From a virus (Duplodnaviria > Heunggongvirae > Uroviricota > Caudoviricetes), in the IMG/VR virus record IMGVR_UViG_2547132281_000013, positions 1 to 21,103 of that record: 21,103 nt of DNA; one strand, 5' to 3'. Below the pieces are notes generated by a model that saw only the letters and a program-made list of their open reading frames with translations, had not been told where the DNA came from and searched no databases. Of the stretch, positions 1-19,874 are shown piece after piece. Within the stretch, counting starts at the first letter, position 1; every line of letters starts with the position of its first letter. The position numbers were made by a program, and so were the translations under genes.

Positions 1-852
1 GTGATTGCTTTACTACTGATTCCCATTCTTGTTAGCGGCTACATTTTAGTAGTCGCTAATTTATATCATTACTATCAATTGCATCGATACGATGGCCAAC
101 TTTTGTATATAAAAGTTGCAGCTCATGGAACAATGAGTGTTGTTTTTGTGATTTTAGCAGCAGTAGTAGTGAAATATTTCTTTCCTAATTTTCACCCAAT
201 AGGAATGCTTTCAGATATTCTTAATGTCAAGAAAATAATAAATGGTAATAAAGCTGAAACATGGCTTGCTTTGATTTCATTATCATCAATTATATTTTCT
301 TTAATTTGGGTGGCTTTAGTTTGGTTAAAAAATATGTTTTTTGGTTTCTTTTGTGAAAAGAAACATCATGAAAACATCTTTCATGCTAAGAAACTTAGAG
401 TATTAAGAAAAACAATTTCTAACTCAACTTTGGATAGTATGCTTTTAGATGCATTAGAAAGCAGTCCTAAAGAACCGATTCTAATAACCTTATCTTCACG
501 GAAAGTTTATGTTGGTATAGTTAATGGAATTCAAGAACCAACAGAAAGCGAAGCGCCAAATAGTTATATATCAATTTTCCCTATTATGTCAGGCTATAGA
601 GATAAAGATACTCTTTCCATCACCTTTACGAATTCATATCCATCAGAAGTACTAGTGAGTTCAGCTATTACAATGGACTCCCAAAAAAGGCATAAAGTGA
701 AAAATATGGATATAATATTTCGTGCTGATGAAATTTCTCATCTTTCATGGTTCGATTTTGAACTATTTGAACAAGTCAATGATTCGATGAAGCACGATAC
801 CATTGACTTGCGAAGTGAGACTTACTCAGGGGAAACTAGCGAAAATTTTTAG
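1..852 (+). CDS. hypothetical polytopic membrane protein, AT-rich cargo gene; 5' end may extend beyond the window
   Basis: Open frame from base 1 (GTG) to 852. Three N-terminal hydrophobic segments (LLLIPILVSGYILVVANL, VVFVILAAVVV, LALISLSSIIFSLIWVALVWL) followed by a soluble domain of about 170 aa. Markedly AT-rich compared with the adjacent integrase gene. Converges on and overlaps the int 3' end by 17 bp. No family recognised. Confidence 0.45.
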   Translation: MIALLLIPILVSGYILVVANLYHYYQLHRYDGQLLYIKVAAHGTMSVVFVILAAVVVKYFFPNFHPIGMLSDILNVKKIINGNKAETWLALISLSSIIFSLIWVALVWLKNMFFGFFCEKKHHENIFHAKKLRVLRKTISNSTLDSMLLDALESSPKEPILITLSSRKVYVGIVNGIQEPTESEAPNSYISIFPIMSGYRDKDTLSITFTNSYPSEVLVSSAITMDSQKRHKVKNMDIIFRADEISHLSWFDFELFEQVNDSMKHDTIDLRSETYSGETSENF

Positions 853-2044
853 TAATTTCAGGTTTCGCTAAAATTTCAGCATGAGGTACACACACCCAAT
901 CGATATGATTTTTAGTATAAATTTTTGTAGATTTGGCGTCGCTGTGTGCCATGCGGCCTTGCGGATCTATTCCCTGCTGATCGAAAAGGTGTGCCGCCAG
1001 CGCACGGATTTCGTGGAAGGTTGGTCTTTCTTCCATGGGTACATTGTCAAATAGTCTCAACCGATCACGAATTGCGGAAAACGATCTACTTAAATAATCT
1101 GGGGCAACTTGTGTCGGATGTGAAACCTCTTTGCTTCGTTTAACTTGGCGTTCTGGGATCCTGTGAACGACAAACGGACTTGCCACATTATCTCTGCTAT
1201 CGTCAATTATCCGTTTCAACTCTTCACCAATCGGTATTGCAACGTGTGATGCCTCTTTTTTTTGTACTTTCTGCCTATGGATATATAGTGTCCCATAAAT
1301 ACCGTTTTTTGGCTGTTCTAACCATACGCACCCGCAGATGCCGTCTTTAGGTTCGCGAATTGAGTAACGGATTCGCGATACTTCGAGTCGTGCATGTGTA
1401 GTTTGCAATGCTAGATCCATTGCTGTTCTTAACCATGGTGCAGCGGCCTGCCTGATAGCTATAAAATGCTCGAGTGACAGGCGCCGTCTTTTCTTCTCAT
1501 CAGTCCTACGCATTTTTTTTCTGATGGCCGGGTTATCCAGCATTAGTGATTCATCGACCGCATAAGAGAACAACTTTTTAAGAAAGCTGACCTTTCTGTT
1601 CTGCACATTTGCGGATGCGCTGGCATGATATTTGTTGATGTAGGTATTAACGTGTTCAAGTTCGATATCGCATGCCGGAACATTTACGAAAAACGCTTTT
1701 ACGCGTAGAGCGTCATTTTTCCAGTCATCTAAGGTACTCTGGGAAGGACGTTCGTCTTCGATAATCCGGGTCATTATGTGATCAACATGTTCAGCAAATG
1801 GTTTTGCTTCTCCGATAACACCGCCAGATTCTCTAATAAGATTTTCTACTGATGGAGATAATTCTGGTCTCATCCTCAGGTTGTACTCTCTGGCGATTGC
1901 AATAGCTATTGCCCTATCCTTACCTATATTTTTCTTCTTTCCGGTAATAAGTGTGAATTTATAAACACCTCGATCTTTATCAAAAATCAGATAATCAGGA
2001 AGATGTCTGTATTCTTTTTTACGTGGCCTTGCCGCCATGGTCAC
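836..2044 (-). CDS. int: tyrosine-type site-specific recombinase, lambda-family phage integrase
   Basis: 402-aa ORF. The C-terminal region carries the catalytic signature of tyrosine recombinases (PTFHEIRALAAHLF ... AHSDAKSTKIYTKNH, with the HxxR box and terminal Tyr), and the overall layout resembles lambda Int. It sits immediately downstream of an excisionase-like gene with start/stop overlap. Confidence 0.85.
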   Translation of the reverse strand: MTMAARPRKKEYRHLPDYLIFDKDRGVYKFTLITGKKKNIGKDRAIAIAIAREYNLRMRPELSPSVENLIRESGGVIGEAKPFAEHVDHIMTRIIEDERPSQSTLDDWKNDALRVKAFFVNVPACDIELEHVNTYINKYHASASANVQNRKVSFLKKLFSYAVDESLMLDNPAIRKKMRRTDEKKRRRLSLEHFIAIRQAAAPWLRTAMDLALQTTHARLEVSRIRYSIREPKDGICGCVWLEQPKNGIYGTLYIHRQKVQKKEASHVAIPIGEELKRIIDDSRDNVASPFVVHRIPERQVKRSKEVSHPTQVAPDYLSRSFSAIRDRLRLFDNVPMEERPTFHEIRALAAHLFDQQGIDPQGRMAHSDAKSTKIYTKNHIDWVCVPHAEILAKPEITKNFR

Positions 2045-2295
2045 CCCTCGTTTATTAACTTGCGAACAGCTTGACTAACCATTGAGTCGACTCCCCATTT
2101 TTCTGTTTCGCAGACAAAAACAGAACCGTCCACGATGCGTCCCATGAGTAGACCGTTCTCGACCCAACGTTTTATCGTTCGGTTGTCAGGAATTGAGCCA
2201 TTAGAGAATTCACGGCGTCCCCATTGGCTCGCTTTCATTAGTTTTGCCATGGCTGTTTCTCCACTTAGCCCGCTGCACTCGGGCAGTAATATCAA
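2041..2295 (-). CDS. xis: excisionase-like small DNA-binding protein
   Basis: Small ORF directly upstream of int, with its stop overlapping the int start. Basic/aromatic composition typical of Xis-type proteins (KRWVENGLLMGRIVDGSVFVCETE). The more likely start is the internal ATG at 2250 (MAKLMK...), which has a GGAG about 8 nt upstream; the maximal ORF is reported. Confidence 0.5.
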   Translation of the reverse strand: MILLPECSGLSGETAMAKLMKASQWGRREFSNGSIPDNRTIKRWVENGLLMGRIVDGSVFVCETEKWGVDSMVSQAVRKLINEG

Positions 2296-5194: not shown

Positions 5195-5248
5195 CCTGGT
5201 TATTCCCCAACAACAAGGATTCGGTTAATCTGGTTATCCCCAACAACG
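5195..5248 (+). repeat. imperfect direct repeat (CTGGTTAT[T]CCCCAACAAC, two copies) just upstream of ORF 5263
   Basis: Copies at about 5195-5215 and 5230-5248, ending 15 bp before the RBS (AAGGAAAAG) of the 144-aa ORF. Confidence 0.4.
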
Positions 5249-5262
5249 CAAAAGGAAAAGAA

Positions 5263-5697
5263 ATGTCCGGTAATATCTACACGCTGTACAAATCCCACTG
5301 TGAAAATGTTGGAAAGTATCGGGGCATTGAAATCAGTGGGGTAGTGTCATCAGTCGAAATAAGCAGAGTGGAATCAAGGGCAACATTACTTACTCTTCTG
5401 GACCTTGTCTTACATGAGCACCGGAAGAAATTCGGCACTCCCTATAATCAGTTGAATGGGAAAAAGGCTCTGGTTCACCTTATTCTGATGAAGCATCACT
5501 GGATGCCAAAACAGATTAATGAGATGAAATTCGATGAACTTCTTCTTTCAATTCAGGATGAACTCACACTTGATAAAATAAGCGTAACCGCCCAGAAATT
5601 TTTAGATTATCGAGACTGGAGATCACAAATTCATCACTTTGATGATTTTGACGAAAATGAATGGGAGCCTAATTTGTCTGCACAATATCTAAAGTAA
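5263..5697 (+). CDS. hypothetical protein, 144 aa; moron-like gene antisense to the leftward early operon
   Basis: ATG with AAGGAAAAG RBS. No transmembrane segment and no recognised domain. Its 3' end overlaps the convergent small ORF at 5669-5875 by 29 bp. Confidence 0.45.
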   Translation: MSGNIYTLYKSHCENVGKYRGIEISGVVSSVEISRVESRATLLTLLDLVLHEHRKKFGTPYNQLNGKKALVHLILMKHHWMPKQINEMKFDELLLSIQDELTLDKISVTAQKFLDYRDWRSQIHHFDDFDENEWEPNLSAQYLK

Positions 5698-5875
5698 CAT
5701 CCTGTGATAAAACCGTGATTTCCTGATCCAGTTTTTTTAAGGAGTCTATTGTTTCCTGTCGATAAGACAGCACTTCACGAAGCTGGTTTATAGCTGCCAG
5801 CTTCTTTGTCATCCACTCGTAAATTTCCTCATTTGTGTATCCGGGCGCGACGATTTTTGGTTCTTTTTTGTGCAT
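5669..5875 (-). CDS. small hypothetical protein, 68 aa; first gene of the leftward (PL-like) operon
   Basis: The ORF track begins at a TTG, but the likely start is the ATG at 5875 (MHKKEPKIV...), which has GAGGAGG 7 nt upstream. Not Arg-rich, so not an obvious N-type antiterminator. Confidence 0.4.
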   Translation of the reverse strand: MHKKEPKIVAPGYTNEEIYEWMTKKLAAINQLREVLSYRQETIDSLKKLDQEITVLSQDVTLDIVQTN

Positions 5876-5935
5876 TTCACACCTCCTCAAGTTATCAGTT
5901 ACTTGTTGATGGGGACCAGATTGTTAAAGAGCTAA

Positions 5936-5956
5936 GCGCCCGAAAGGGCGTTTTTT
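5936..5956 (+). terminator. putative rho-independent terminator on the plus strand
   Basis: GCGCCC-GAAA-GGGCG followed by TTTTTT. Confidence 0.4.
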
Positions 5957-6025
5957 GTTGCTAACGAATCATCCTGGACTTCATATGCCTCAGGCGGCTA
6001 CTTCGTGGGCGTCCTGCCTGTTCTT

Positions 6026-6062
6026 TGTTTCGTTTGGGTACATTATGTATCTCAAGGGTACA
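6026..6062. promoter_or_regulatory. OL-like operator pair
   Basis: TGTTT-N7-GTACA (6026-6042) and TGTAT-N7-GTACA (6046-6062). The GGGTACATT motif occurs twice. Same half-site family as the cI/cro intergenic operators. Confidence 0.45.
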
Positions 6063-6073
6063 TTGTCAAGTAT

Positions 6074-6096
6074 AAAAAAACCTGCCGAAGCAGGTT
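6074..6096 (-). terminator. rho-independent terminator downstream of the repressor gene
   Basis: Minus-strand stem AACCTGC-TTCG-GCAGGTT followed by a run of seven T; lies 13 bp past the cI stop. Confidence 0.5.
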
Positions 6097-6108
6097 CATA
6101 GACATTGA

Positions 6109-6783
6109 TTAGGCTTTGATTTTGTATCTTCTTGGTTTTCCTGAGAAAATCACTGTACCAATTATAGAGCAATTACCGTTGATCTTAATGTAAGGCTCAG
6201 GCCAATTTGGGTTTAACGCTTTGAGATAACGCTGTGTCCCATCTTCTATCAACCTTTTGAAGGTGGTTTCACCTGTATCGTGCATCAATGCAATAACATC
6301 GTCACCGTGGCAGGCAGGTACTTCAGGATCGACAAAAATCATGTCTCCCGGGCGGTACTCATCAATCATTGAATCACCTATCACCCGCAAGATATAAGTC
6401 ATTTCCCCACAGGGTACAGGGCAGGGATACGTTTCTGCTGTGCTCAAATCAACCTCAGAATATCCAACTTCTTTCCATGCTCCGGCCTGTACCCATGATA
6501 TGACAGGGACTAATGTGATTTGTTTATTAGTGATTGAAACATCAGGTTTTTTTGTGATGTTCGTTGTCTGGTGTTCTTGATCGAGCCATCCGATAGGCAG
6601 GTCGAAACATTTTTCGATGTGTCGTGCCATGCTGTCACCGATATTTTTAGTAGCACCATCTCCCATAAACCTGCTGGTCTGGGTTGGCTCGCGATCAATC
6701 ATAGTGGCAAAGGAAGAATTCCCGCCAACACCATCTCTCAGTTTTCTGGCGTTAGACCGCCGGATGTCATGGATTGTTTTCAT
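6109..6783 (-). CDS. cI: CI-like prophage repressor (N-terminal HTH, C-terminal S24 LexA-type autopeptidase)
   Basis: 224 aa. The C-terminal domain carries the S24 catalytic Ser (RVIGDSM) and a downstream Lys (TTFKRL). Divergent from a Cro-like gene across an operator-bearing intergenic region. Confidence 0.85.
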   Translation of the reverse strand: MKTIHDIRRSNARKLRDGVGGNSSFATMIDREPTQTSRFMGDGATKNIGDSMARHIEKCFDLPIGWLDQEHQTTNITKKPDVSITNKQITLVPVISWVQAGAWKEVGYSEVDLSTAETYPCPVPCGEMTYILRVIGDSMIDEYRPGDMIFVDPEVPACHGDDVIALMHDTGETTFKRLIEDGTQRYLKALNPNWPEPYIKINGNCSIIGTVIFSGKPRRYKIKA

Positions 6784-6873
6784 AACGAAATTAAAACCCT
6801 TGTACCGTTAAGGTACAAGTGTCTTGAAGGTTCATTTCAATCATGTAATATGTACACCGGAGGTACATATTGT
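6784..6873. promoter_or_regulatory. divergent immunity control region (OR/PR/PRM-like)
   Basis: Two dyad operators TGTAC-N7-GTACA at 6801-6817 (within the 21-bp palindrome CTTGTACCGTTAAGGTACAAG) and 6851-6867. Candidate rightward promoter: -35 TTGAAG (6824-6829), 16-bp spacer, -10 TAATAT (6846-6851). The second operator overlaps the -10 and the start site. Confidence 0.55.
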
Positions 6874-7074
6874 ATGAAAGCGTATTGGGACTCTTTAACC
6901 AAAGAACAGCAGGGCGAGTTGGCCGGAAAAGTTGGCTCAACACCTGGCTACTTACGGCTGGTTTTCAATGGCTATAAAAAAGCCAGTTTTGTGCTGGCTA
7001 AAAAACTTGAGCAATGCACGTCAGGTGCAATTACGAAATCTGACTTAAGACCGGATATCTATCCGAAAGATTAG
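6874..7074 (+). CDS. cro: Cro-like HTH regulator
   Basis: 66 aa from the ATG at 6874, with GGAGG 10 nt upstream. The longer ORF-track frame (6571-) runs antisense into cI and is rejected. Confidence 0.6.
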   Translation: MKAYWDSLTKEQQGELAGKVGSTPGYLRLVFNGYKKASFVLAKKLEQCTSGAITKSDLRPDIYPKD

Positions 7075-7105
7075 CAGAACACCTTCAATTTTTAACCACA
7101 GAACG

Positions 7106-7672
7106 ATGAGGCTAACCGTGGGTAAGCATCACTGGAAAATAGAAAAACAGCCTGAGTGGTACGTGAAAGCTGTCAGAAAAACTATCGCAGCGTTGCCGGG
7201 GGGTTACGCTGAAGCAGCTGACTGGCTGGATGTAACAGAGAACGCATTATTTAACCGCCTTCGTGCCGATGGCGATCAGATTTTCCCGCTGGGATGGGCA
7301 ATGATTTTGCAACGTGCTGGTGGAACTCACTTCATTGCTGACGCTGTGGCGCAGTCTGCAAATGGCGTCTTTGTGTCTCTTCCTGATGTCGAGGATGTGG
7401 ACAACGCCGATATCAACCAACGCCTGCTGGAGGTCATTGAACAGATCGGCAGTTATTCAAAACAGATTCGTTCAGCAATTGAAGACGGTGTAGTGGAACC
7501 GCATGAGAAGACAGCAATTAACGACGAGCTGTACCTCTCAATTTCGAAGCTGCAGGAGCATGCAGCACTGGTCTACAAAATTTTTAGTACATTCAAGAGA
7601 AGTAATGACGCCCGCGAGTGTGCAGCTCCGGGCGCCGTGGCGTGTCGTGACTGTGGAGAAACTAACGCATGA
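7106..7672 (+). CDS. YmfL-like putative early regulator (CII-position gene)
   Basis: 188 aa, immediately downstream of cro. Length and position match e14 ymfL from memory. An alternative GTG start at 7121 has a better SD. Confidence 0.45.
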
Positions 7673-8007
7673 ACAGTTTAACAACACACTACCGTCGCTC
7701 GCAACTGATTGCGCTTCCTGTACCGGGTGGAAAAGCGAAGGTGGAGTATTGCTATGCAGTAAATGTACCAGGTGGCAGGGTAATTGTAACCCACAGCTTT
7801 GCAGAGTGGGCTGTGGGTGATTTTAACCGGCAAAAGGAGACAGTCCTTTGCGACAAGTTAACCGCTGGTTCAAAGATCACTACGGAGTACCCGTCAGAGT
7901 CATTCGTTGGGAGCCGGAAACACAACGGGTTATCTACCTCCGCGAAGGCTATGAGCATGAATGCTTCAGTCCGCTCGAACAGTTTCGTCGTAAATTCAGG
8001 GAAATAG
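7669..8007 (+). CDS. YmfM-like hypothetical protein, 112 aa
   Basis: ATGA start/stop coupling with the preceding gene. The 3' half overlaps an alternative-frame ORF that has a stronger RBS (next feature). Confidence 0.35.
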
Positions 8008-8027
8008 AGGTCGGTCATGAGCACTAA
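7848..8027 (+). CDS. small DUF4222-like protein, 59 aa, TTG start, in an alternative frame
   Basis: AAGGAG at 7833-7838, 9 nt upstream of TTG 7848. Product [58 protein letters not shown] is protein-like and recalled as resembling DUF4222 prophage proteins. Confidence 0.4.
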
Positions 8028-8292
8028 ATTAACCGGCTATGTATGGGATGGTTGCGCTGCATCAGGCATGAAGTTATCCAGCGTGGCAATTATGGCACGC
8101 CTGGCTGATTTCAGTAATGACGAAGGTGTGTGCTGGCCATCAATTGAAACCATTGCCCGTCAGATTGGCGCGGGGATGAGTACCGTCAGAACGGCTATCG
8201 CACGGCTGGAAGCAGAAGGCTGGTTAACGCGTAAGGCGCGTCGCCAGGGTAGAGACAACAAAAGGAGCCTGGGATGTACAGCAGACTGTTAA
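8017..8292 (+). pseudogene. N-terminal fragment of a phage replication-initiation (O-like, HTH) protein
   Basis: The first ~77 aa ([78 protein letters not shown]) look like a replication-protein N-terminus. The frame then runs into unrelated sequence and stops at 91 aa, where full-length proteins are much longer. Confidence 0.5.
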
Positions 8293-8492
8293 TCATCTAC
8301 CTGATGACGATGTTGACCGTGAGTTGCGCGAAAACTTTACCCGCAAAACCTGAAGTAACGGACACGGCCTGTGACTGGGTAAGAATCATCTACCTCACAG
8401 GTCAGGACATTGAAGTGCTGGATAAGCTTACGAAGCGGGATATTCTGGCACATAACAAAGCAGTACAGCGCAACTGTATTAGCCAGTTATGA
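8274..8492 (+). CDS. small putative exported protein or lipoprotein (possibly Rz1/o-spanin-like)
   Basis: AAGGAG 7 nt upstream of the ATG. Hydrophobic N-terminus ending in a near-lipobox (LTVSC). Position is upstream of the packaging genes. Confidence 0.3.
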   Translation: MYSRLLIIYLMTMLTVSCAKTLPAKPEVTDTACDWVRIIYLTGQDIEVLDKLTKRDILAHNKAVQRNCISQL

Positions 8493-8534
8493 GGCAAACG
8501 AGATTGCGGGCAATTATCGCCCGCAATAAAGTTA

Positions 8535-8798
8535 TCAATTATCTCCTTTAAAGGAGTCGTATTCACCCCAATCAGCAAACCCAATCGGTCTTTTAGGGGT
8601 CTCTAAGCATAAGCGTTTTTTTCGGATTAGCAGGACATTTATTTGAGATACATGCTGAACAAGTTCTACAGGACTGCCATCCTCCAGAGTACCAATGAAA
8701 GAAATTAATGATGGATTCCAGTAGCTTATGTCTGTGAAATGAAATTCAATGTTTTTACCAAAGCTAGCTAGTTGTCCTCCTACCTCATACTCTTCTTC
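8535..8798 (-). pseudogene. 3' portion of a small ORF interrupted by the IS66-family element
   Basis: Continues the frame of 11506-11631 once the IS and one copy of the target duplication are removed (...EEEYEVGGQLASFGKNIEFHF...GEYDSFKGDN). Confidence 0.5.
8791..8798. repeat. 8-bp target-site duplication TCTTCTTC (left copy)
   Basis: Identical 8-mer abuts both ends of the IS66-family element. Confidence 0.8.
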
Positions 8799-8828
8799 GT
8801 AAGCGACTCGTCAGAACCGTATTGATAT

Positions 8829-10400
8829 TTACTGAGAGCTCAGATCAACTTTCCAGGGCAACAGATCGCGTACCCGGTTTGCCGGCCAGTCCTGGATATG
8901 TTCAATGACGTAACGCAGCCACTTTTCTGGCTCCACATTGTTCAGACGGCATGTGCCGATCAGCGAGTACAACACCGCCGCATGTTCACCACCGCTGTCG
9001 GAACCCGCGAACATCCAGTTTTTCCGGCCTACGGCCACTCCCCGTAAGGCGTTCTCTGCGATGTTGTTGTCGATTTCCACCCAGCCATTACTGCAGTACA
9101 CGTTCAGTGCATCCCACTGTTTCAGCAGGTATGCGAACGCTTTTGCCGTATCTGAGTGACGCGACAGTGTTTTCATCTGTTGCTGTATCCAGTCATACAG
9201 TGACTGCATCAGTGGCGCGGCTCTGGCTTTTCTTGCCGCCAGACGCTGTTCTGCTGAACAGCCCCGGACCTCTGCCTCGATGGCATACAGTTCACCGATA
9301 CGCTGCAGGGCTTCCGTGGTGATGTCGGTGGGCGCTCTTGCATGCACATCGTGGATTTTTCTCCGGGCATGAGCCATACACGCGGCTTCCGTTATTCTGC
9401 CGGATTCGTATAACGCCCGGTAACCACCGTAAGCATCGGCCTGAAGCACACCGCTGTAACCGGCCAGGTGATTTTGTGGATGGATACCTTTCCGGTCCGG
9501 ACTGTACGCGAACCAGACCGCCGGGGGCATCTGTGAACCGGCGTTACGGTCATCACGGACGTAGACCCACAGCCGGGCTGTCCGGGTTTTACCGCTGCCC
9601 GGCTCCTGGACCGGGACGGGGATATCATCAGCATGGACTTTACCGGGCATCAGCACATACTGGCGCAGGACGTCATACAGCGGCTCCAGCAGTTCAGCAA
9701 CAGCACCTGTCCAGCGCCCCAGTGTGGCACGGCTCAGCTCCACTCCCTGACGACGGTATATTTCTGACTGGCGGTATAACGGCAGATGGTCTGCATATTT
9801 CCCGGTGACAACATGGGCCAGAAGCCCCGCTCCGGCATAACTGCGTGCAATGGGTTTTGAAGGTACTGGTGCCTGCACGATATGGTCGCACCGGCAACAG
9901 GCCTGTTTCGGACGTTGTGTTTCGATAACCTTAAAGGCGCTGCTGATAAGCTCCAGTTGCTCTGACACATCACATCCCAGAGAACTGAGTTCACCACCAC
10001 AGGCAGGACAGCATTCCTCTTCCGGCCGGATAACCCGGGTTTCACGGGGAAGTGAGGCCGGTAACGGTTTACGGGCTGAAGACTGGCGCAGGGCGGATGG
10101 CAGTACCGGGTCATATTGCTCACCCAGCGTTTCCGCCATTTCTTCCTGAAGTGCGCTGATTCGCTCCTGTGCTTCCTGTATCTGCCGTTCGGTTTTTGCA
10201 CGAAGTTTTTCTGAGCTTTTACCGAACTGCATGCGCTGCAGTTTCGCAACCAGCGCCTTCAGCCGGTTGATTTCGGAAGCATAAGCCGCCACCCGCTGTG
10301 AGAGCAGGCGGTTGTATTCAGCCATCTGGCGGATGGTGTCCTGTTGCGTCTGCAACAGTGCCCGCAGGCGGGCGTTCTCATGAGCAAGTGAGGTGTCCAT
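8829..10400 (-). CDS. tnpC: IS66-family transposase TnpC
   Basis: 523 aa with an N-terminal coiled-coil/leucine-zipper region, a CxxC...C zinc-finger-like motif (CCPACGGEL...) and a DDE-type core. Confidence 0.85.
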
Positions 10401-10419
10401 ATCCTCACTTTACAACGGG

Positions 10420-10767
10420 TTATATGCGGATTCCAGCGCGTTCCGTTCGTTTCGGGTGCTTCCAGTTGATACCTTCAAGAAGCATGGATAACTGAGCCGG
10501 AGTAAGGTGCACCTTGCCGTCACGGGTGACTGGCCAGACGAAGCGGCCCCGCTCCAGGCGTTTGGTGAAGAGGCACAGTCCGTCACTGTCAGCCCACAAC
10601 ACTTTTATCTGGTCACCCCGGCGTCCGCGGAAGATGAACAGGTGTCCGGAGAACGGGTCATCCTTCAGGACGTTCTGAACTTTTGATGCCAGGCCGTTAA
10701 AGCCATTTCGCATATCGGTGATACCTGCAACCAGCCAGATACGCGAACCTGCAGGGAGAGATATCAT
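10420..10767 (-). CDS. tnpB: IS66-family accessory protein TnpB
   Basis: 115 aa, typical IS66 Orf2 (LWADSDGLCLFTKRLERGRFVWP), translationally coupled to tnpA. Confidence 0.8.
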   Translation of the reverse strand: MISLPAGSRIWLVAGITDMRNGFNGLASKVQNVLKDDPFSGHLFIFRGRRGDQIKVLWADSDGLCLFTKRLERGRFVWPVTRDGKVHLTPAQLSMLLEGINWKHPKRTERAGIRI

Positions 10768-11444
10768 CAGTGGCTGCTCCCTTTTATTTCGCGGATAAGT
10801 GTCTGTAATAACGCCGGCGTCAGTTTACCTTTAAGCCTGAGAGTTCCGGCCGGCAGAACCAGCTCACAACACAGACTGTCGGACGGTGTATTTATCTGCT
10901 CTGGTTCCTGTGCGGGGGCCGGGATTTTATTATCCGGCTCCGGCGTTAACGTCACGGGAAGCAGTGCCGGCATATTTTTTCCGGAAGGCAGCAGGCCACC
11001 TTTCCGGTATTGATGGCGCCAGTTGAAGAGCAGGTTATCGTTGATTCCGTTTTCCCGGGCGATCTGCGCCACACAGGCTCCGGGCTGCAGTGACTGCTCC
11101 ACTAAGGCGATTTTAAACTCATAAGGGAAGTTGGGCCGCCGGGGACGTTTTTTTACCACGGGGGCTTCGGATATAACGGTGCTTTCAGGACGTACGACTG
11201 GTACCGTGGAAAATTGTCCGTAAAGGCAGGCATCAAGTTCCTGCTCCGACATGCCTGCGGGCAAAGGCCACGAAAGGCCAGCTCTCCGAAAGCGCACGAA
11301 CATACTACAAACTGTTGATTTTGGTACACCCAGGCGACGCCCGGCCACAACCCGGGGTAAATGTTCTTCAAAGTGAAGACGTAAAGCTTCAGTGATCCAG
11401 GTCCGGTGTTTCATACGATAGTGTCCATTAAAAATGATGGACAT
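10767..11444 (-). CDS. tnpA: IS66-family accessory protein TnpA (HTH), with an N-terminal extension
   Basis: The C-terminal part carries the IS66 OrfA HTH (PRRPNFPYEFKIALVEQSLQPGACVAQIARENGINDNLLFNWRHQYRKG). Start is uncertain between the ATGs at 11444 and 11414. Confidence 0.7.
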   Translation of the reverse strand: MSIIFNGHYRMKHRTWITEALRLHFEEHLPRVVAGRRLGVPKSTVCSMFVRFRRAGLSWPLPAGMSEQELDACLYGQFSTVPVVRPESTVISEAPVVKKRPRRPNFPYEFKIALVEQSLQPGACVAQIARENGINDNLLFNWRHQYRKGGLLPSGKNMPALLPVTLTPEPDNKIPAPAQEPEQINTPSDSLCCELVLPAGTLRLKGKLTPALLQTLIREIKGSSH

Positions 11445-11497
11445 TATTTTTGTAGAGCCGGAGGAAACAGACCAGACGGTTTAAATGAGCCGGTTAC

Positions 11498-11505
11498 TCT
11501 TCTTC
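11498..11505. repeat. 8-bp target-site duplication TCTTCTTC (right copy)
   Basis: Identical to 8791-8798. Confidence 0.8.
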
Positions 11506-11631
11506 AAGTTCACGGTGAAAATCATTTATCCAGCATATAAGGCGTCTATGAAATTCATTTGCAAGATTGTAGTCCTTTGGAACATATGGCTGTGAGTATT
11601 TGAGGAAATCATTCATGTAGTTATTTGTCAT
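11506..11631 (-). pseudogene. 5' portion of the small ORF interrupted by the IS66-family element
   Basis: ATG at 11631 with AAGGA about 8 nt upstream (MTNNYMNDFLKYSQPYVPKDYNLANEFHRRLICWINDFHRELEE...). The frame runs into the target duplication and the IS end. Confidence 0.5.
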
Positions 11632-11729
11632 CAGGGCGTCCTTTACGAGCATAACCATTGTTACTTAACGGATTGAAACGCTATTAAATAACATGGTTTC
11701 TATCATAATTTCTATCCGGAGTTTTCCAT

Positions 11730-12080
11730 ATGCCGCCACGAATCCCAAAAGCCTGCCGTGTTCGCGGCTGTCGTTCTACCACTACAGATCCGTCAGGCTA
11801 CTGCGAAAATCATAAAGGTGAGGGCTGGAAATCCTACAAGCCAGGTCAATCACGGCAGCAGCGCGGATATGGAACAAAGTGGGAAGTCATCCGGGAGCGG
11901 ATACTAAAGCGCGACAAAGGGTTATGTCAGAACCATCTTCGGCAGGGAGTTGTGAAGCAAGCGTCCTGCGTGGATCACCTCAAGGCGAAGGCTCACGGCG
12001 GCACTGATGAAGACAGCAACCTTGAGAGTCTGTGCTGGTCGTGTCACGCAGTGAAGACCGCGCGTGAGCGGTTCAGGTGA
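11730..12080 (+). CDS. phage-associated HNH endonuclease
   Basis: 116 aa with the HNH signature (CVDHLKAKAHGGTDEDSNLESLCWSCH) and N-terminal Cys pairs. GGAG 8 nt upstream. Sits next to the terminase genes, as is common in cos-type packaging modules. Confidence 0.8.
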   Translation: MPPRIPKACRVRGCRSTTTDPSGYCENHKGEGWKSYKPGQSRQQRGYGTKWEVIRERILKRDKGLCQNHLRQGVVKQASCVDHLKAKAHGGTDEDSNLESLCWSCHAVKTARERFR

Positions 12081-12197
12081 GAATTGATGTCATCATCAGC
12101 CAGGGGAGGGGGAGGTCGAATCTTTGCAACCGCGCGCCTTCCGGACTGCTCGCCCCATCGTTTTTTTATACCCGCGAAAAATGAAATTTAACCAGGA

Positions 12198-12701
12198 GTG
12201 CCGCATATGGCTGGAACGGCGGGGCGTTCCGGGCGTCGCCCCAAGCCAACGGCGCGCAAGGCGCTGGCCGGAAACCCCGGCAAGCGAGCCCTGAATAAAG
12301 ATGAACCTGTTTTTACGCCCATCAAAGGTGTTGAGCCACCGGAGTGGTTCGCTGAAGAAGATCTCCCTCTCGCCACGATCATGTGGCAACTGACAACTAA
12401 AGAACTCTGCGGTCAGGGCCTGCTGTGCGTGACTGACCTCGCAGTGCTTGAGCGGTGGTGTGTGGCCTATGAGTTCTGGCGACGTGCCGTGAAAAATATT
12501 GCCAGACAGGGCAACACCATCACCGGTGCAATGGGCGGTATGGTCAAAAATCCGGAGCTGACCGCCAAAAAAGAACAGGAGTCCGAGATGAGCAGTACGG
12601 GGGCAATGCTCGGACTCGACCCCAGCAGCCGCCAGCGTCTAATTGGCCTGGCGGGGAAGAAGAAAGCCACTAACCCGTTTCTGAAAATCATCGAATCATG
12701 A
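12198..12701 (+). CDS. terminase small subunit (P27-family-like)
   Basis: [21 protein letters not shown] motif. The likely start is the ATG at 12207, which has AGGAG 8 nt upstream; the ORF-track start at 12198 is a GTG. Stop overlaps the terL start (ATGA). Confidence 0.75.
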
Positions 12702-13561
12702 GCCGGAAATCTTACCCCAACGTAAATGCTGCCAATCAGTATGCCCGTGATGTCGTGCGCGGAAAGATTGTGGCCTGCCAGTTTGTGATTCAGGCCTGCC
12801 AGCGGCATCTTGATGACCTGATGGCGGAAAAAAGTAAGTCGTTTCGTTACCGCTTCGACAAGGACCTGGCTGAACGGGCCGCTAAATTTATTCAGCTGTT
12901 GCCGCACACCAAGGGTGAGTGGGCATTTAAGAGGATGCCCATCACGCTGGAGCTGTGGCAGCTCTTTGTGATCTGCTGCGCGTTTGGCTGGGTCAATAAA
13001 GGCTCCCGGCTGCGCCGCTTCCGTGAGGTGTATACCGAAATCCCCCGTAAGAACGGCAAATCGGCAATCTCTGCCGGTGTCGCCCTGTATTGTTTTGCCT
13101 GTGATAACGAGTTCGGCGCGGAAGTGTATTCCGGTGCCACGACGGAGAAACAGGCATGGGAAGTCTTTCGTCCGGCAAGACTGATGTGTAAACGCACACC
13201 CATGCTAACGGAAGCGTTCGGGATTGAGGTTAACGCCTCAAACATGAACCGTCCGGAGGATGGTGCGCGTTTTGAACCGCTGATCGGTAACCCCGGTGAT
13301 GGTTCATCACCCCACTGTGCGGTGGTGGATGAATATCACGAGCACGCCACCGATGCGCTTTACACCACGATGCTTACCGGGATGGGGGCGCGACGTCAGC
13401 CACTGATGTGGGCCATTACTACTGCCGGGTACAACATTGAGGGGCCGTGCTACGACAAGCGGCGGGAAGTTATCGAGATGCTCAACGGGTCGGTACCTGG
13501 CCTGCGGTACAGAATGACCGTTACGGCTCCCGACTGTGGCTGCTTCAGCGCAGCAAACTGA
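12698..13561 (+). pseudogene. terminase large subunit, N-terminal ATPase portion only (truncated)
   Basis: Walker A-like GKS (PRKNGKSA) and Walker B-like VVDEYHE are present. The frame stops at 287 aa after a non-conserved tail, and no nuclease domain follows. Confidence 0.65.
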
Positions 13562-13770
13562 CCAATCAGCTGGTGCAGACGGTAAGGGGGTATATCCGCG
13601 AATGCCTGCAATGGATGATTGATGACGGCGTGGTGTCCCGTATTGATCTGGATATCCGCCGCACCGGGATTAATGAACTGGGTAACAGTATCACTCTCTG
13701 GCGTCGTGACGGACCGGTAATGATTTCTTTTGATGATCTGTGGAGTGCGATAACGCATGGCGGACAGTGA
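13562..13770 (+). pseudogene. start-less C-terminal remnant of the gene preceding baseplate J (possibly gpW/gp25-like)
   Basis: Protein-like frame (...IRECLQWMIDDGVVSRIDLDIRRTGINELGNSITLWRRDGPVMISFDDLW...) ending in overlap with the baseplate J start. No credible start or RBS after the terL stop. Confidence 0.25.
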
Positions 13771-14815
13771 ATTTCAGCGCCCGACGCTGGCAGAAAATAT
13801 CAGTATGCTCCGTAACGATTTATTCGCCAGGCTGGACGTCAGCGACACGCTCCGGCGCATGGATGAAGACGTGCGGGCAAAGGTGTATGCGGCGGCGCTG
13901 CATACGGTTTACGGTTACATCGATTATCTGGCAATGAACATGCTGCCTGACCTGTGCGATGAGTCCTGGCTGGCGCGACATGCTGCGATGAAACGGTGTC
14001 CGCGCAAGGGAGCCACGGCTGCCAGTGGGTATATGCGCTGGGAAGGTGTCAGCGATGGCCTGAAGGTGACCGCCGGGAGTGTTATTCAGCGCGATGACCT
14101 GGTGCAGTACACGACAACTGACGATGCAACCAGCTCCGGTGGTGTCCTGCGCGTGCCGATCGCCTGCTCAAGTGCAGGTGCGGTCGGTAACGCTGACGAC
14201 GGTACGGCATTAATCCTGGTCACGCCGGTGAATGGTCTGCCGTCTTCCGGTGTGGCTGACACCCTGACAGGCGGATTTGATACTGAAGAGCTGGAAACGT
14301 GGCGCGCCCGCGTCATTGAGCGGTATTACTGGACGCCGCAGGGCGGGGCTGACGGGGACTATGTTGTCTGGGCTAAAGAAGTGCCCGGCATTACCCGCGC
14401 ATGGACATACCGACACTGGATGGGAACGGGGACTGTCGGTGTGATGATTGCCAGCAGCGACCTGATTAACCCCATTCCGGAAGAATCAACGGAAACGGCG
14501 GCAAGACAACACATTGAGCCACTGGCCCCGGTGGCAGGCTCTGATTTGTATGTATTCAGGCCGGTGGCGCACAAAGTGGATTTTCATATCCGCGTGACTC
14601 CGGACACACCGGAAATACGGGATGCCATCACCGCGGAGTTGCGTTCATTCCTGCTGCGTGATGGTTATCCGCAGGGAGAGCTGAAGGTATCGCGTATCAG
14701 TGAAGCGATTTCCGGTGCGAACGGGGAATACAGCCATCAGTTGCTTGCTCCGGCGGACAATATCTCCATTGCAAAAAATGAACTGGCGGTTCTGGGGACG
14801 ATTTCATGGACGTGA
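13757..14815 (+). CDS. baseplate assembly protein J-like (P2 gpJ family)
   Basis: 352 aa. Position immediately upstream of a gpI-like and tail-fibre gene with overlapping start/stop, and overall similarity to the e14 jayE-type protein. Confidence 0.75.
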
Positions 14816-15390
14816 CAAACGATGATTACATCCGTCTGTTGTCGGCACTGTTGCCCCCTGGTCCGGCGTGGTCAGCCAGCGATCCGGCGATTGCCGGTGC
14901 GGCACCGTCATTAACCCGTGCTCATCAGCGTGCGGATGCCCTGATGCGGGAGCTGGATCCGCGCACCACCACCGAACTGATAAACCGCTGGGAGCGTCTG
15001 TGCGGCCTGCCGGATGAATGTATTCCGGCAGGGACGCAGACCCTTCGCCAGCGTCAGCAACGGCTGGATGCGAAGGTTAACCTGGCGGGCGGCATCAATG
15101 AGGATTTTTACCTTGCGCAGCTTGCTGCCCTGGGCAGACCAGATGCCACCATCACGCGATACGACAAAAGCACGTTCACCTGCTCATCGGCCTGTACTGA
15201 CGCGGTGAATGCGCCGGAATGGCGGTATTACTGGCAGGTCAATATGCCAGCTGCCACCAACACCACCTGGATGACATGTGGCGATCCCTGCGATTCCGCA
15301 CTGCGTATCTGGGGGGACACCGTTATCGAGTGCGTGCTTAACAAACTCTGCCCGTCGCATACCTACGTAATTTTTAAATATCCGGAGTAA
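14806..15390 (+). CDS. P2 gpI-like tail protein (YmfQ-like)
   Basis: 194 aa, overlapping the gpJ-like stop. Conserved N-terminal LLPPGPAW motif. Length matches e14 YmfQ from memory. Confidence 0.7.
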
Positions 15391-15393
15391 TCC

Positions 15394-16320
15394 ATGCATC
15401 GTATAGACACGAAAACCGCGCAAAAGGATAAGTTCGGCGCGGGTAAGAACGGTTTTACCCGTGGTAACCCCCAGACAGGCACGCCTGCCACCGATCTGGA
15501 TGATGACTACTTTGACATGTTGCAGGAAGAGCTCTGCAGCGTGGTGGAGGCATCCGGTGCCAGCCTGGAGAAGGGGCGGCATGACCAGCTGCTTACCGCG
15601 CTTCGTGCGCTGCTGTTAAGTCGCAAAAATCCGTTTGGCGATATCAAATCGGACGGCACGGTGAAAACGGCTCTTCAAAACCTTGGTTTGGGAGATACAA
15701 GCGGATACGTGGGACGCCGGCTGAGTACCTGGGCTTTCGCGTCATCAGGTACGTATACCCCATCACTAGAAACAAAACGGATCAGGGTCACAATAACGGG
15801 CGGCGGTGGCGGAGGGGGGGGCTGCCAGGCTATATCCAGTAACGAAACGTTTTTCGGTGCTGGCGGTGGGGCCGGAGGGACAGTAATCACCATACTGACC
15901 CCGACACAGAATAGTTATCCTGTCACTATCGGCGCAGGTGGGGCCGGCGGCGTTGGTGCGACGAACGGCCTCAAGGGCGGTGATAGCTCGTTCGGATCGG
16001 TAATAGCCCCTGGTGGTGAAGGCGGCGGAAAATCAGGAGTCACAAACACAAACGGCGGTAACGGAGGCGTACCGAATATTGGCGATATCCGCATCACTGG
16101 TGGAGATGGAGGCGACGGTCAGTCCGGGAATATCGGCGTCAGCGGTGAAGGCGGTGCATCGTACTGGGGAGGCGGTGGACGCGCAGGCTCTGGCGGTGGC
16201 GTTAGAGGCAGGGCATTTGGTTCAGGCGGAGGTGGTGCATACGATGCAGGTTATAGCGGAACCAGTATGACGGGCGGGAAAGGTGCTGCTGGGGTTTGTA
16301 TTATCGAGGAGTTTGCATAA
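15394..16320 (+). CDS. side tail fibre protein (constant N-terminus plus Gly-rich variable C-terminus)
   Basis: N-terminus [47 protein letters not shown]... is the conserved Mu/e14-type fibre N-terminal region. The C-terminus is made of GGxGG repeats. The gene crosses the invertible-segment boundary at 15683-15684. Confidence 0.8.
15671..15696. other. Din-family (gix/hix/pix-like) recombination site, left boundary of the invertible segment
   Basis: CTCTTCAAAACC-TT-GGTTTGGGAGAT is an imperfect 26-bp dyad resembling hix/gix, and is an inverted copy of the site at 17503-17528. Confidence 0.6.
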
Positions 16321-17806: not shown

Positions 17807-19696
17807 TTAATCGTGTTTTGGCCATACTTTCAATGCAATTTCCCCCAACTTTTTACCCCGCTCCAGGATTTCATCCTCATCCCATTTATCCTTAACTATA
17901 AGTGGAATGTTCAGTCGTAGATTGGTGTGGACGATGAGAGCATCACGTTTTTTCAGAAATACAGCATTCTGAACAGAACGGTTTACGCTAAGGTTAAGCA
18001 AAGTTAGATTTCCCAACGTAGCTATCGCTTGTTGCCGTTTCCTTACCAGTAGCTGTTCAGGGGTAAGATCGGTTCCAGACAGAACAATTTGGTTCAATAC
18101 CGTAGCATCTGAATTTGTCACCATATGACCATTTTCGAGAGGCCAACAGGAAAACCAACTTTGAGGCATAAGATGATCGATATCGAGATTGGAAAGATTT
18201 GGACCATCAGGCTTCTCTGTCTTCACTTGGCGACAAAGTTCTCTTTCAAGTTCCGTTAACATTGAGCGCATTTTCGGTGCGTCGAGCCTGCCAGGATAAA
18301 GTGGAGCATTGATGCAAGCATTGAGAAATTCTGAGTCACCAGGCCAACGTGAGGCTTCGCCATTTAAGCTATTGAGGATATTACGTAACTCAACACTGGA
18401 AATTTCCGTTTTAGACAAGTGCCGCAATACATTCATAAATACATTGTTGTAATTCTTTGGCGTCAGGCCACATACGGCTCTTCGTACTACGTAGGAGACA
18501 AGATCATTATACATGGCTGCTTTCTCATCATCAGCGATGTTAGCTATCGAAATGAACAAAGCAAGCGGATAAAGTGTCGTCACATCATAGTCTGCGATGC
18601 GATATCCAAAGTGTGAGATGGGGGTTGTGCCAAAACCATCAACCAATTCTTTATATTGTGATGCATATTGTTTGAGGCGCTTTACTTGCAGATCTGCTCG
18701 TTGTGAAGACAAGTCCTTACTTACATAATCACGATACTCATTGTAAAGGCGAGACAGATCAATTTCACGCTGCCTTTCTGATTGCAATGTCGCATGTACT
18801 AGCCACTCCATGCGTGGTTTATTAATACGTCCACGGCGTTGCTTTTCCGACCAGTATTTATCTTCAAAGCTCTTCCACTCATTTTCATATAATTCAATAG
18901 CATTAATATTTTCATGCTCAGCGCACATAAAGATATAGTTGCGAATAAGATCCGTGGCATGAAGTTCCGCCCCTCGCCCATTTAATGTTTCAAAAATTAT
19001 TTGGGCATCATCTTCAGCTTCGAGAAATATGCTTACCAGTTTCAGATCTGTTAAGACAGCCTCAATTAGAGCTACAGCATTTTCTTGTGGTGAGTGGTTT
19101 TCTATTTTAATCCATTTTATAAAGGCTTCAGTAAAAAAACATAATGCTTCTAGTGATGGCGGGTGATTAAAATGCTTACGCAACGTACCATGCTGCGTGA
19201 AACTATCAGAGAATACGTCCCGGAGATCGTCAATATTTTCAACATTAAAACTTTGAATAAAATGAGTTTGATCCCGAAAAGTTGGCCATAGTTTGAAGCG
19301 TTCTACTTCTTTATTTCGCATTGTGTCTTCGTTTGAGTTTTTCAGGCAAGGCGAAATGAGAGCCTCTAAGCTGAAAAGATCCGTAGCACGTAATGCTAAT
19401 CGGATGGATGCCAGAACATATTGAAGAGTGGTCAATCGTTGCTGACCATCAATAATATGTATGGAATCTACACCTAATAATCCTTTTTTTGATTGAGGTT
19501 CCAGTACAACCGCACCAAGGAAATGGGGAGTTGGTTTTGTACCCGAGAGCCGGGATTGTGCTTTCTCTAGGATATCCTCCAGTAGAGCTGACCATTGGTC
19601 TTGCTGAGTCCATACATAGGCACGTTGATAGAATGGAACACAGTATTGTCGGCGGTCTTGAAAAAGTTGTTGGACAGTTAGCGTCTCGGATTTCAT
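17807..19696 (-). CDS. DUF262/DUF1524 protein, GmrSD-like candidate type IV (modification-dependent) restriction endonuclease
   Basis: N-terminal DUF262 hallmark ...SIHIIDGQQRLTTLQYVLASI... (DGQQR). C-terminal DUF1524-type His-Me finger motifs ...LDIDHLMPQSW... and ...LGNLTLLNLSVNRSVQN.... The likely start is the ATG at 19696 (MKSETLTVQQLF...) with AGGT upstream; the maximal ORF extends to 19756 but has no RBS. Confidence 0.75.
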   Translation of the reverse strand: MKSETLTVQQLFQDRRQYCVPFYQRAYVWTQQDQWSALLEDILEKAQSRLSGTKPTPHFLGAVVLEPQSKKGLLGVDSIHIIDGQQRLTTLQYVLASIRLALRATDLFSLEALISPCLKNSNEDTMRNKEVERFKLWPTFRDQTHFIQSFNVENIDDLRDVFSDSFTQHGTLRKHFNHPPSLEALCFFTEAFIKWIKIENHSPQENAVALIEAVLTDLKLVSIFLEAEDDAQIIFETLNGRGAELHATDLIRNYIFMCAEHENINAIELYENEWKSFEDKYWSEKQRRGRINKPRMEWLVHATLQSERQREIDLSRLYNEYRDYVSKDLSSQRADLQVKRLKQYASQYKELVDGFGTTPISHFGYRIADYDVTTLYPLALFISIANIADDEKAAMYNDLVSYVVRRAVCGLTPKNYNNVFMNVLRHLSKTEISSVELRNILNSLNGEASRWPGDSEFLNACINAPLYPGRLDAPKMRSMLTELERELCRQVKTEKPDGPNLSNLDIDHLMPQSWFSCWPLENGHMVTNSDATVLNQIVLSGTDLTPEQLLVRKRQQAIATLGNLTLLNLSVNRSVQNAVFLKKRDALIVHTNLRLNIPLIVKDKWDEDEILERGKKLGEIALKVWPKHD

Positions 19697-19874
19697 GGTA
19701 TACCTGTAAGCGACATTGTACAAAAGTGAGGAGTTAATCTGATTTAGAACAATCATTTTATTTTGCTATGATACAACGTATTTGTTACCGGTTAAGCAAA
19801 AAACGCGTCTGAACGCTGACGTTTTAGGGCTTTACTGGTTATTCTTTCTTATCTCTTCATCATTGGATTTGCCC

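Follow-up and report, generated by a model that had tools for sequence, protein, structure and literature searches.

A mobile two-gene cassette encoding a predicted inner-membrane protein with an Sm-like domain is a candidate anti-phage module

In the Rex system of bacteriophage lambda, one partner senses infection and a membrane protein dissipates the membrane potential. RexB has four transmembrane (TM) helices and lacks an Sm-like domain, RexA is about 280 residues long, and the rexAB genes are located in the immunity region. In Cap15-type effectors of the CBASS systems (which signal against phages by means of cyclic oligonucleotides), a β-barrel binds a ligand and triggers disruption of the membrane. 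The core of MscS forms a heptameric channel. In the e14 prophage of Escherichia coli K-12, the abortive-infection gene lit converges on the integrase gene intE. A gene in the equivalent position begins the 21,103-nucleotide stretch of prophage DNA analysed here (hereafter the window; positions 1 to 21,103 of IMG/VR record IMGVR_UViG_2547132281_000013). This gene, which encodes a predicted 283-residue inner-membrane protein (WP_000561018.1), is the larger member of a two-gene cassette. The family belongs to no characterised system; we class it as a two-component candidate for defence that travels on mobile elements and would act through a membrane effector. We assign a probability of roughly 0.55 to the cassette being an anti-phage module of some kind that is carried as mobile-element cargo.

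The large gene occupies positions 1..852 of the plus strand and starts with a GTG codon. At the base composition of the open reading frame (ORF), the chance of 283 stop-free codons is about 1.5e-10, the ratio of nonsynonymous to synonymous substitution rates (dN/dS) against an 86%-identical homologue is 0.08 (0.087/1.04), and homologues are numerous. Therefore, the gene is not a chance ORF and is under purifying selection. As the initial annotation of the window had noted, the gene is AT-rich beside the integrase gene int (GC content 32.2% versus 42.8%, and 24% versus 37% at third codon positions), and its end overlaps the convergent int by 17 bp (836-852). The GC content of the window is 48.8%. 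The same annotation had allowed for an upstream partner gene or a longer N-terminus beyond the edge of the window, and only the partner was found. The genome of avian pathogenic E. coli (APEC) O78 (locus L001) was used solely as a proxy for the DNA upstream of the window, because the remainder of the window is not colinear with it. In APEC O78, the in-frame codon directly before the GTG is TAG, and the homologues begin at the same methionine as the 283-residue protein; therefore, its N-terminus is complete.

The partner gene (L001 7796-7996 in APEC O78) encodes a 66-residue basic protein (WP_000002741.1). It is preceded by the strong ribosome-binding site GGAGGAG, and only 4 nt separate its end from the GTG of the large gene (8001-8852 in L001). 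A promoter-like site is located at L001 7606-7633. Translation of the two genes is probably coupled. The small protein is soluble and consists of a β-hairpin with an invariant glycine (G24) followed by a long helix. The first 91 loci collected comprised annotated phages, E. coli and Vibrio contigs, and IMG/VR viral contigs; a small ORF on the same strand precedes the large gene in all 87 of these phage, prophage and mobile-element loci that have upstream sequence, ending between -32 and +39 nt from the large start. It is also present in most of 55 genome loci from several phyla. In the annotated phages with the pair, which include phiES15, Klebsiella phage ST15-OXA48phi14.1, and Salmonella phages SEN4 and SEN5, the partner ORF is always present and encodes 58-82 residues. 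The small proteins of different loci have one common core with the invariant glycine, and the small gene is under purifying selection (dN/dS of 0.12). The distance matrices of the large and small proteins correlate with a Mantel r of 0.91 (98 non-redundant pairs; none of 999 permutations gave as high a value). The small partner is thus obligatory, and the two genes are always found together. This constant pairing and co-divergence show that the functional unit is a two-gene cassette, which moves and diverges as one piece, and the earlier single-gene view has been corrected accordingly.

Two side observations concern the small gene. Partner homologues of 62-74 residues (P0327, P0333, P0337, P0342, P0344, P0345, P0347 and P0352) are named "multidrug ABC transporter ATPase" in their source records; the name is implausible at this size and looks like a propagated misannotation. 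In genomes of the endosymbionts Sodalis and Arsenophonus (L098, L106, L107, L108 and L132), the large gene is fragmented and the small ORF is intact. This pattern would fit early loss of a toxic partner, yet it is also expected from the lesser mutational target of the small gene.

Clustered at 90% identity, homologues of the large protein fall into 229 groups. When 1.8 billion representative proteins were searched with a profile, 2,656 clusters (50% identity) were identified at E <= 1e-3, 1,370 of them at E <= 1e-10, and nearly all family clusters are 240-340 residues long with the same end-to-end architecture. The sole named family matched by the large protein is PHROG 3630, catalogued with unknown function; the match is full-length, with residues 1-271 aligned to positions 1-260 of the 274-position profile at E 6.9e-75. 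The small partner matches phrog_5739 (E 2e-08). The system profiles of PADLOC-DB 2.0.0 returned no match for the two cassette proteins at E <= 1 and none for the family proteins of four phage homologues at E <= 0.1. A sequence search of solved structures with the large protein gave nothing, and a fold search of BFVD returned one weak, uninformative match. The large gene did not prove to be the 3' end of a housekeeping gene, nor did it match any known family outside defence, so that the suggestion of an accessory gene stands. A Pfam FPL match of one of 67 diverse members (E 0.0033) fell below the cutoff and was treated as a chance match. YmfE, a neighbour in e14, was considered as a relative and shows no similarity.

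The three N-terminal hydrophobic helices and the soluble part proposed in the initial annotation were confirmed by two approaches. A Kyte-Doolittle scan with a 19-residue window delimits hydrophobic stretches at about residues 1-21, 39-61 and 88-116, in agreement with helices at residues 2-19, 32-60 and 84-119 of an AlphaFold2 monomer model of medium confidence. The remaining residues, about 167 of the 283, form the soluble part. Conservation was evaluated in two family alignments, A1 and the very diverse A2. TM helix 1 (residues 1-21; 1..63, plus strand, as are all positions in this and the next paragraph) contains the conserved P8, S12 and G13. It is followed by the motif LHRYDGQLLY(I/L)K (residues 27-38; 79..114), the best-conserved stretch of the N-terminal half, in which L27, G32, Q33, L35, Y36 and K38 are invariant in A1. 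From the positive-inside rule, this stretch is predicted to be a cytoplasmic loop running into TM helix 2 (residues 39-61; 115..183), where G43 is invariant in both alignments. TM helix 3 (residues 88-116; 262..348) carries a stripe of serines, S93 (invariant in A1), S96 and S100. The segment after TM helix 3 is strongly basic, with seven lysines or arginines in 24 residues. By the positive-inside rule, we therefore infer an N-out/C-in topology, in which the conserved loop and the C-terminal domain would be cytoplasmic.

The C-terminal part of the large protein (residues 157-251; 469..753) is modelled as a β-barrel of the Sm/LSm/Hfq type, with a helix at residues 143-153 preceding a strongly bent five-stranded barrel. 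Residues K168, Y170, G172, P180, E182, S197, G198, R200 and Y213 are invariant in A1 and conserved to at least 90% in A2, and G198 is invariant in both. The conserved motifs of the domain are RKVYVG, EPxE and SGYRDK, together with N211 and Y213. Neither the query nor 67 diverse family members match an LSM or Hfq family of Pfam, and a sequence search of the PDB gave no match; the likeness of the modelled domain to Sm proteins is thus at the level of the fold only. The string HENIFH (residues 123-128; 367..384) lies in a variable, gap-rich linker: its columns are variable and gapped in a 58-sequence alignment, and it is unconserved even among homologues of 45-60% identity. Since the string is located in a variable linker between conserved blocks, it is not a catalytic or metal-binding motif.

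The pair is found in Alpha-, Beta- and Gammaproteobacteria, Leptospirae (Turneriella), Bacteroidota (Flavobacterium) and Acidobacteria. The commonest Pfam families among its neighbours in 34 representative phage and prophage loci are integrases (9), Phage_GPA, the P2 replication protein gpA (7), portal proteins (6) and terminases (4). Two positions predominate: the end of lambdoid prophages between the attachment site (att) and int, and the gpA-gpQ (gpA-portal) region of P2-like phages. The first is occupied here and in phiES15, in which the pair lies between int and attP, and the second in Klebsiella and Salmonella phages. In P22-like prophages of E. coli, the pair is positioned between the ejection-protein genes and the tailspike gene, which is the slot of P22 sieA, and in Vibrio cholerae the cassette is located on an integrase-bearing island with TraN. 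Thirty-one plasmids carry it, mostly from Salmonella and many of them conjugative; inspection of one showed it to be of the IncC type. The cassette thus recurs in known antiviral hotspots or in slots of mobile elements whose cargo varies. Outside Enterobacterales, it appears to form an isolated islet.

The position of the cassette in its own prophage was reconstructed with the APEC O78 proxy. A 78-nt tRNA-Pro is annotated some 420-495 nt before the start of the window (L001 7508-7585), although it was detected neither by ARAGORN nor by the Rfam tRNA model. Its 3' half, about 210 nt further upstream of the pair and beside a yejO-like autotransporter gene and narP, appears to match the native proL sequence. 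Its 5' half is a different sequence, and the acceptor stem still pairs at 7/7 positions (one G-T). The annotated tRNA is therefore probably a junction between an att remnant and a phage segment that resembles a tRNA. An intact tRNA-Pro is present at the opposite end of the prophage remnant, beside yejM. Therefore, the cassette is phage-side cargo between att and int, as the designation of the large gene as a cargo gene had implied. Sister prophages at the identical tRNA-Pro site have int genes 93-96% identical to this one and identical early genes, and their att-int cargo is entirely different (L151 1771-4351 and L152 3288-4415). One sister strain carries two hypothetical proteins and a DUF2971 protein matching the PADLOC candidate family PDC-S31, and another carries two other hypothetical proteins, of 256 and 118 residues. 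Given such unlike cargo beside near-identical int genes, the slot between att and int behaves as a cargo-swapping hotspot in this family of tRNA-Pro prophages.

Members of the family have been catalogued before. An antiviral hotspot in P2-like phages, the gpA-gpQ region, was described by Rousset et al. (2022; PMC9122126), and two of the 169 curated hotspot systems in their Table S5B contain family members. System #43 (93 occurrences, labelled "2 TM") includes a more distant member, and system #57 (75 occurrences) includes the membrane protein (LHRYDGQLLYMK ... SGYRDKD) together with its small partner (VEVVGRGAIIT...). In the DefensePredictor analysis of 3,000 E. coli strains (Table S10; PMC13092281), cluster_id WP_000561018.1, the exact protein encoded here, is listed as a "Predicted novel defense gene" with a mean log-odds of 6.71 (standard deviation 1.0, range 5.1-7.6), the strict cutoff being 4. 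Known defence proteins include neither a remote nor a structural homologue of the cluster (PMC13092281). The copy analysed here differs from the Rousset systems in its location, a lambdoid att-int slot instead of the P2 hotspot. The entries of Rousset, DefensePredictor and PHROG go no further than "hypothetical", "2 TM", "predicted novel defense gene" and "unknown function". PHROGs and two supplementary tables thus already contain the family, with no comment on it, so that the candidate itself is not new. As far as the literature examined shows, no description exists of the pairing of the two genes across phyla, of the Sm-like domain or of the distribution over several kinds of element.

We favour a role in defence because the cassette sits in antiviral hotspots and because of the published machine-learning prediction. 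Several points weigh against it. No Pfam, NCBIfam or PADLOC family was matched by the query proteins, nor by the 67 diverse members. The neighbours outside Enterobacterales are mostly ordinary chromosomal genes, such as major facilitator superfamily transporters and response regulators, and the 25 genome loci sampled contained only two SMODS and two AAA+S8 neighbours. The P2 hotspot itself also carries partition systems and cytolethal distending toxin (Table S5B of PMC9122126). The family is absent from the systems tested by Rousset et al., since its motifs are missing from the sequences of their Table S2. Only 42 of the 94 units tested with DefensePredictor, about 45%, were validated (PMC13092281), and the family motifs are absent from the sequences of these validated systems. 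No record of an experiment on the family was found in either study or in an accession search of main texts. The best-conserved loop of the Sm-like domain is acidic (EPxE), which disfavours simple binding of nucleic acid. Finally, ring formation, the membrane topology, binding of the partner and the action on the membrane, on which a mechanism would depend, are all deduced from a monomer model of medium confidence.

Based on the predicted topology and the modelled fold, a mechanism can be proposed by which the two-gene cassette would protect the lysogen from other phages. The loop with the conserved HRYDGQLLY sequence would lie on the cytoplasmic side, as would the Sm-like domain. Sm-fold domains usually oligomerise, and those of the large protein may assemble into a ring beneath a bundle of TM helices. 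The small partner would bind this cytoplasmic assembly, either keeping it silent or acting as a sensor, and infection would alter the interaction. The TM bundle might then perturb the inner membrane, through ion leakage and loss of the proton-motive force, and thereby abort the infection, following the logic of lambda RexAB or of the TM/β-barrel effectors of CBASS. This specific mechanism of a gated membrane effector is tentative, and we regard it as considerably less probable than a defensive role in general. We speculate further, with low expectation, that the family may represent an unrecognised class of membrane-embedded Sm-fold assemblies: immunity pores gated by a nucleic-acid or protein ligand, controlled by partners of 60-80 residues, of MscS-independent origin, and spread across phyla on phages, plasmids and islands.

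An anti-phage function might also be exerted at DNA entry. A protein conferring superinfection exclusion would block genome injection at the membrane without killing the cell, in the manner of P22 SieA, T4 Imm and HK97 gp15, with the small protein serving as an assembly or regulatory factor. The large protein is a prophage-borne inner-membrane protein, it is lysogen cargo beside att and int, and the pair occupies the sieA-type slot in P22-like prophages of E. coli. The family nevertheless has no similarity to SieA (hhalign probability 0.35%). Known exclusion proteins are single, small and narrow in host range, whereas this family has a conserved, predicted cytoplasmic Sm-like domain and an obligatory partner, and spans several phyla, plasmids and plain chromosomal contexts. 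Because of the domain, the partner and the broad distribution, an intracellular sensor and effector fits better than a receptor- or channel-specific block of entry, and we consider exclusion at DNA entry unlikely.

A slightly lower probability is given to a toxin-antitoxin or addiction module, in which a membrane toxin and a small antitoxin would mainly stabilise the prophage, plasmid or island. The layout is that of type II-like toxin-antitoxin systems: the small gene comes first, the larger one follows after a 4-nt spacing or with an overlap, and the two are never separated; an intact large gene was never seen without the small one. The cassette is carried on conjugative IncC plasmids, and the eroding endosymbiont genomes keep the small ORF while the large gene is fragmented. 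However, survival of a short ORF in a decaying genome is expected from target size alone, searches recognised no antitoxin or DNA-binding domain in the small protein, and the pair is concentrated in phage antiviral hotspots. Many toxin-antitoxin modules are themselves abortive-infection systems, so that this alternative overlaps the anti-phage explanation that we prefer.

Less probable again is lysogenic conversion unrelated to phages or addiction, in which the cassette would provide a factor for the envelope, transport, stress or host colonisation. Accessory genes of the att-int slot include non-defence genes, the P2 hotspot holds the partition systems and cytolethal distending toxin mentioned above, and the neighbours on chromosomes of other phyla are housekeeping genes. 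The first 2.3 kb of the window is, moreover, 100% identical in 22 complete E. coli genomes, including APEC O78, and 99.7% identical in a 23rd, and the recorded hosts of the listed genomes with the identical allele are mostly poultry. Since the 22 genomes are identical across the whole 2300-bp query, the poultry link is attributed to one clonal lineage. The large protein has no similarity to transporter, channel or virulence families, and the patchy distribution over several kinds of element and the DefensePredictor score favour a conflict system. A variant of the Lit-type abortive-infection metalloprotease using HExxxH was rejected as highly improbable in spite of the HENIFH string and the int-adjacent, convergent position shared with e14 lit: as the initial annotation had already judged, the protein lacks HEXXH, and the string is unconserved, the family profile matches K-12 Lit (peptidase U49) with an hhalign probability of 0.07%, there is no Pfam protease match, and the modelled fold of TM helices and an Sm-like barrel is not that of a zincin.

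If the cassette is defensive, it is a compact system of about 1.1 kb with no homologue among the characterised ones, widespread across phyla, phages, plasmids and islands. It would provide a tractable model of a very small sensor controlling a membrane effector, and a function for PHROG 3630 and phrog_5739, as well as for two of the recurrent "hypothetical" occupants of the P2 hotspot. If it is not defensive, it is still a conserved mobile two-gene module. Many comparable defence candidates exist; this one stands out as widespread, compact and easy to test.

The integrase that converges on the large gene is a tyrosine recombinase with a lambda-type Arm-binding N-terminus (836..2044, minus strand). 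Directly upstream of int, in the position of an excisionase gene, is a small ORF (2041..2295, minus strand) in which a 69-residue hypothetical protein is annotated at 2041-2250; its single match is a weak one to the helix-turn-helix family DUF4817. The stretch from 5219 to 16203, which is not colinear with APEC O78, contains genes for a cI-like S24 repressor (6109-6783) and a CII-like regulator (7106-7672), an IS66-family insertion (8829-11444) and a truncated large terminase gene (12698-13561), as well as a tail-fibre gene and genes for baseplate J and a Mu gp48-like protein. Where the prophage remnant ends on the side away from int, a gene for a 649-residue GmrSD-type, type IV (modification-dependent) restriction enzyme (17807-19756, minus strand) adjoins an IS2/IS3-family transposase; the protein matches GmrSD_N and GmrSD_C of Pfam and mREase_IV of PADLOC (1418 bits). 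The prophage is decaying and riddled with insertion sequences; nonetheless, the cargo cassette is intact.

An ORF of 50-69 residues and then a gene for a protein of 465-477 residues come after the cassette in one clade of P2-like phages. This four-gene arrangement is present in Klebsiella phage ST15-OXA48phi14.1 (L003 4853-6492) and also in L087, L088 and L090. The 465-477-residue protein of the Klebsiella phage matches the stand-alone bSEFIR defence system (E 7e-103). As the arrangement recurs, the cassette may be functionally linked to SEFIR in this clade. The SEFIR gene had suggested a relation to the validated AC1 system, "2TM + 1TM + TIR", of Rousset et al. (2022). This candidate was rejected: none of the sequences given for tested systems in Table S2 contains the family motifs, the intervening 69-residue ORF reads without a hydrophobic stretch of TM length, and the SEFIR gene matches the stand-alone bSEFIR system.

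The comparison of the locus with e14, proposed in the initial annotation, holds for the slot, the convergent orientation and the related integrase, which is 26% identical to IntE. Both genes are cargo of a decaying prophage with a type IV restriction enzyme at the far end, GmrSD here and mcrA in e14. As in e14, where the two are lit and mcrA, each end of the remnant thus bears cargo of a defence type. The proteins themselves are unrelated, the one described here being membrane-anchored, with a modelled Sm-like domain and a partner. P22 SieA was rejected as an identity for the large protein, with which it shares only the slot in some P22-like prophages. SieA, T4 Imm and HK97 gp15 resemble the large protein in being prophage- or phage-encoded inner-membrane proteins in accessory slots, but each of them is a single small protein that lacks both a partner and a conserved cytoplasmic domain.

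MscS was likewise rejected as a relative, as there is no similarity at the profile level. The architecture of the MscS core, with three TM helices followed by a cytoplasmic Sm-like β domain, is nevertheless similar, and this resemblance is the origin of the proposed ring under the TM bundle. Cap15 of CBASS (Pfam S_2TMBeta) shares with the large protein the N-terminal TM helices and a small C-terminal β-barrel. The family differs from it in having no S_2TMBeta match, no consistently associated cyclase (SMODS genes near family members amount to two matching proteins in the 25 genome loci), and a protein of 60-80 residues as its constant partner. The partner of 66 residues, the Sm-like domain and the att-int slot distinguish the cassette from lambda RexAB, to which no sequence or fold relation emerged, in that no PADLOC family matched and no direct comparison with Rex was made. 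Like RexA and RexB, however, it is a prophage-borne two-gene unit of a polytopic inner-membrane protein and a cytoplasmic partner, and by analogy it may share with them the logic of sensing an infection and depolarising the membrane.

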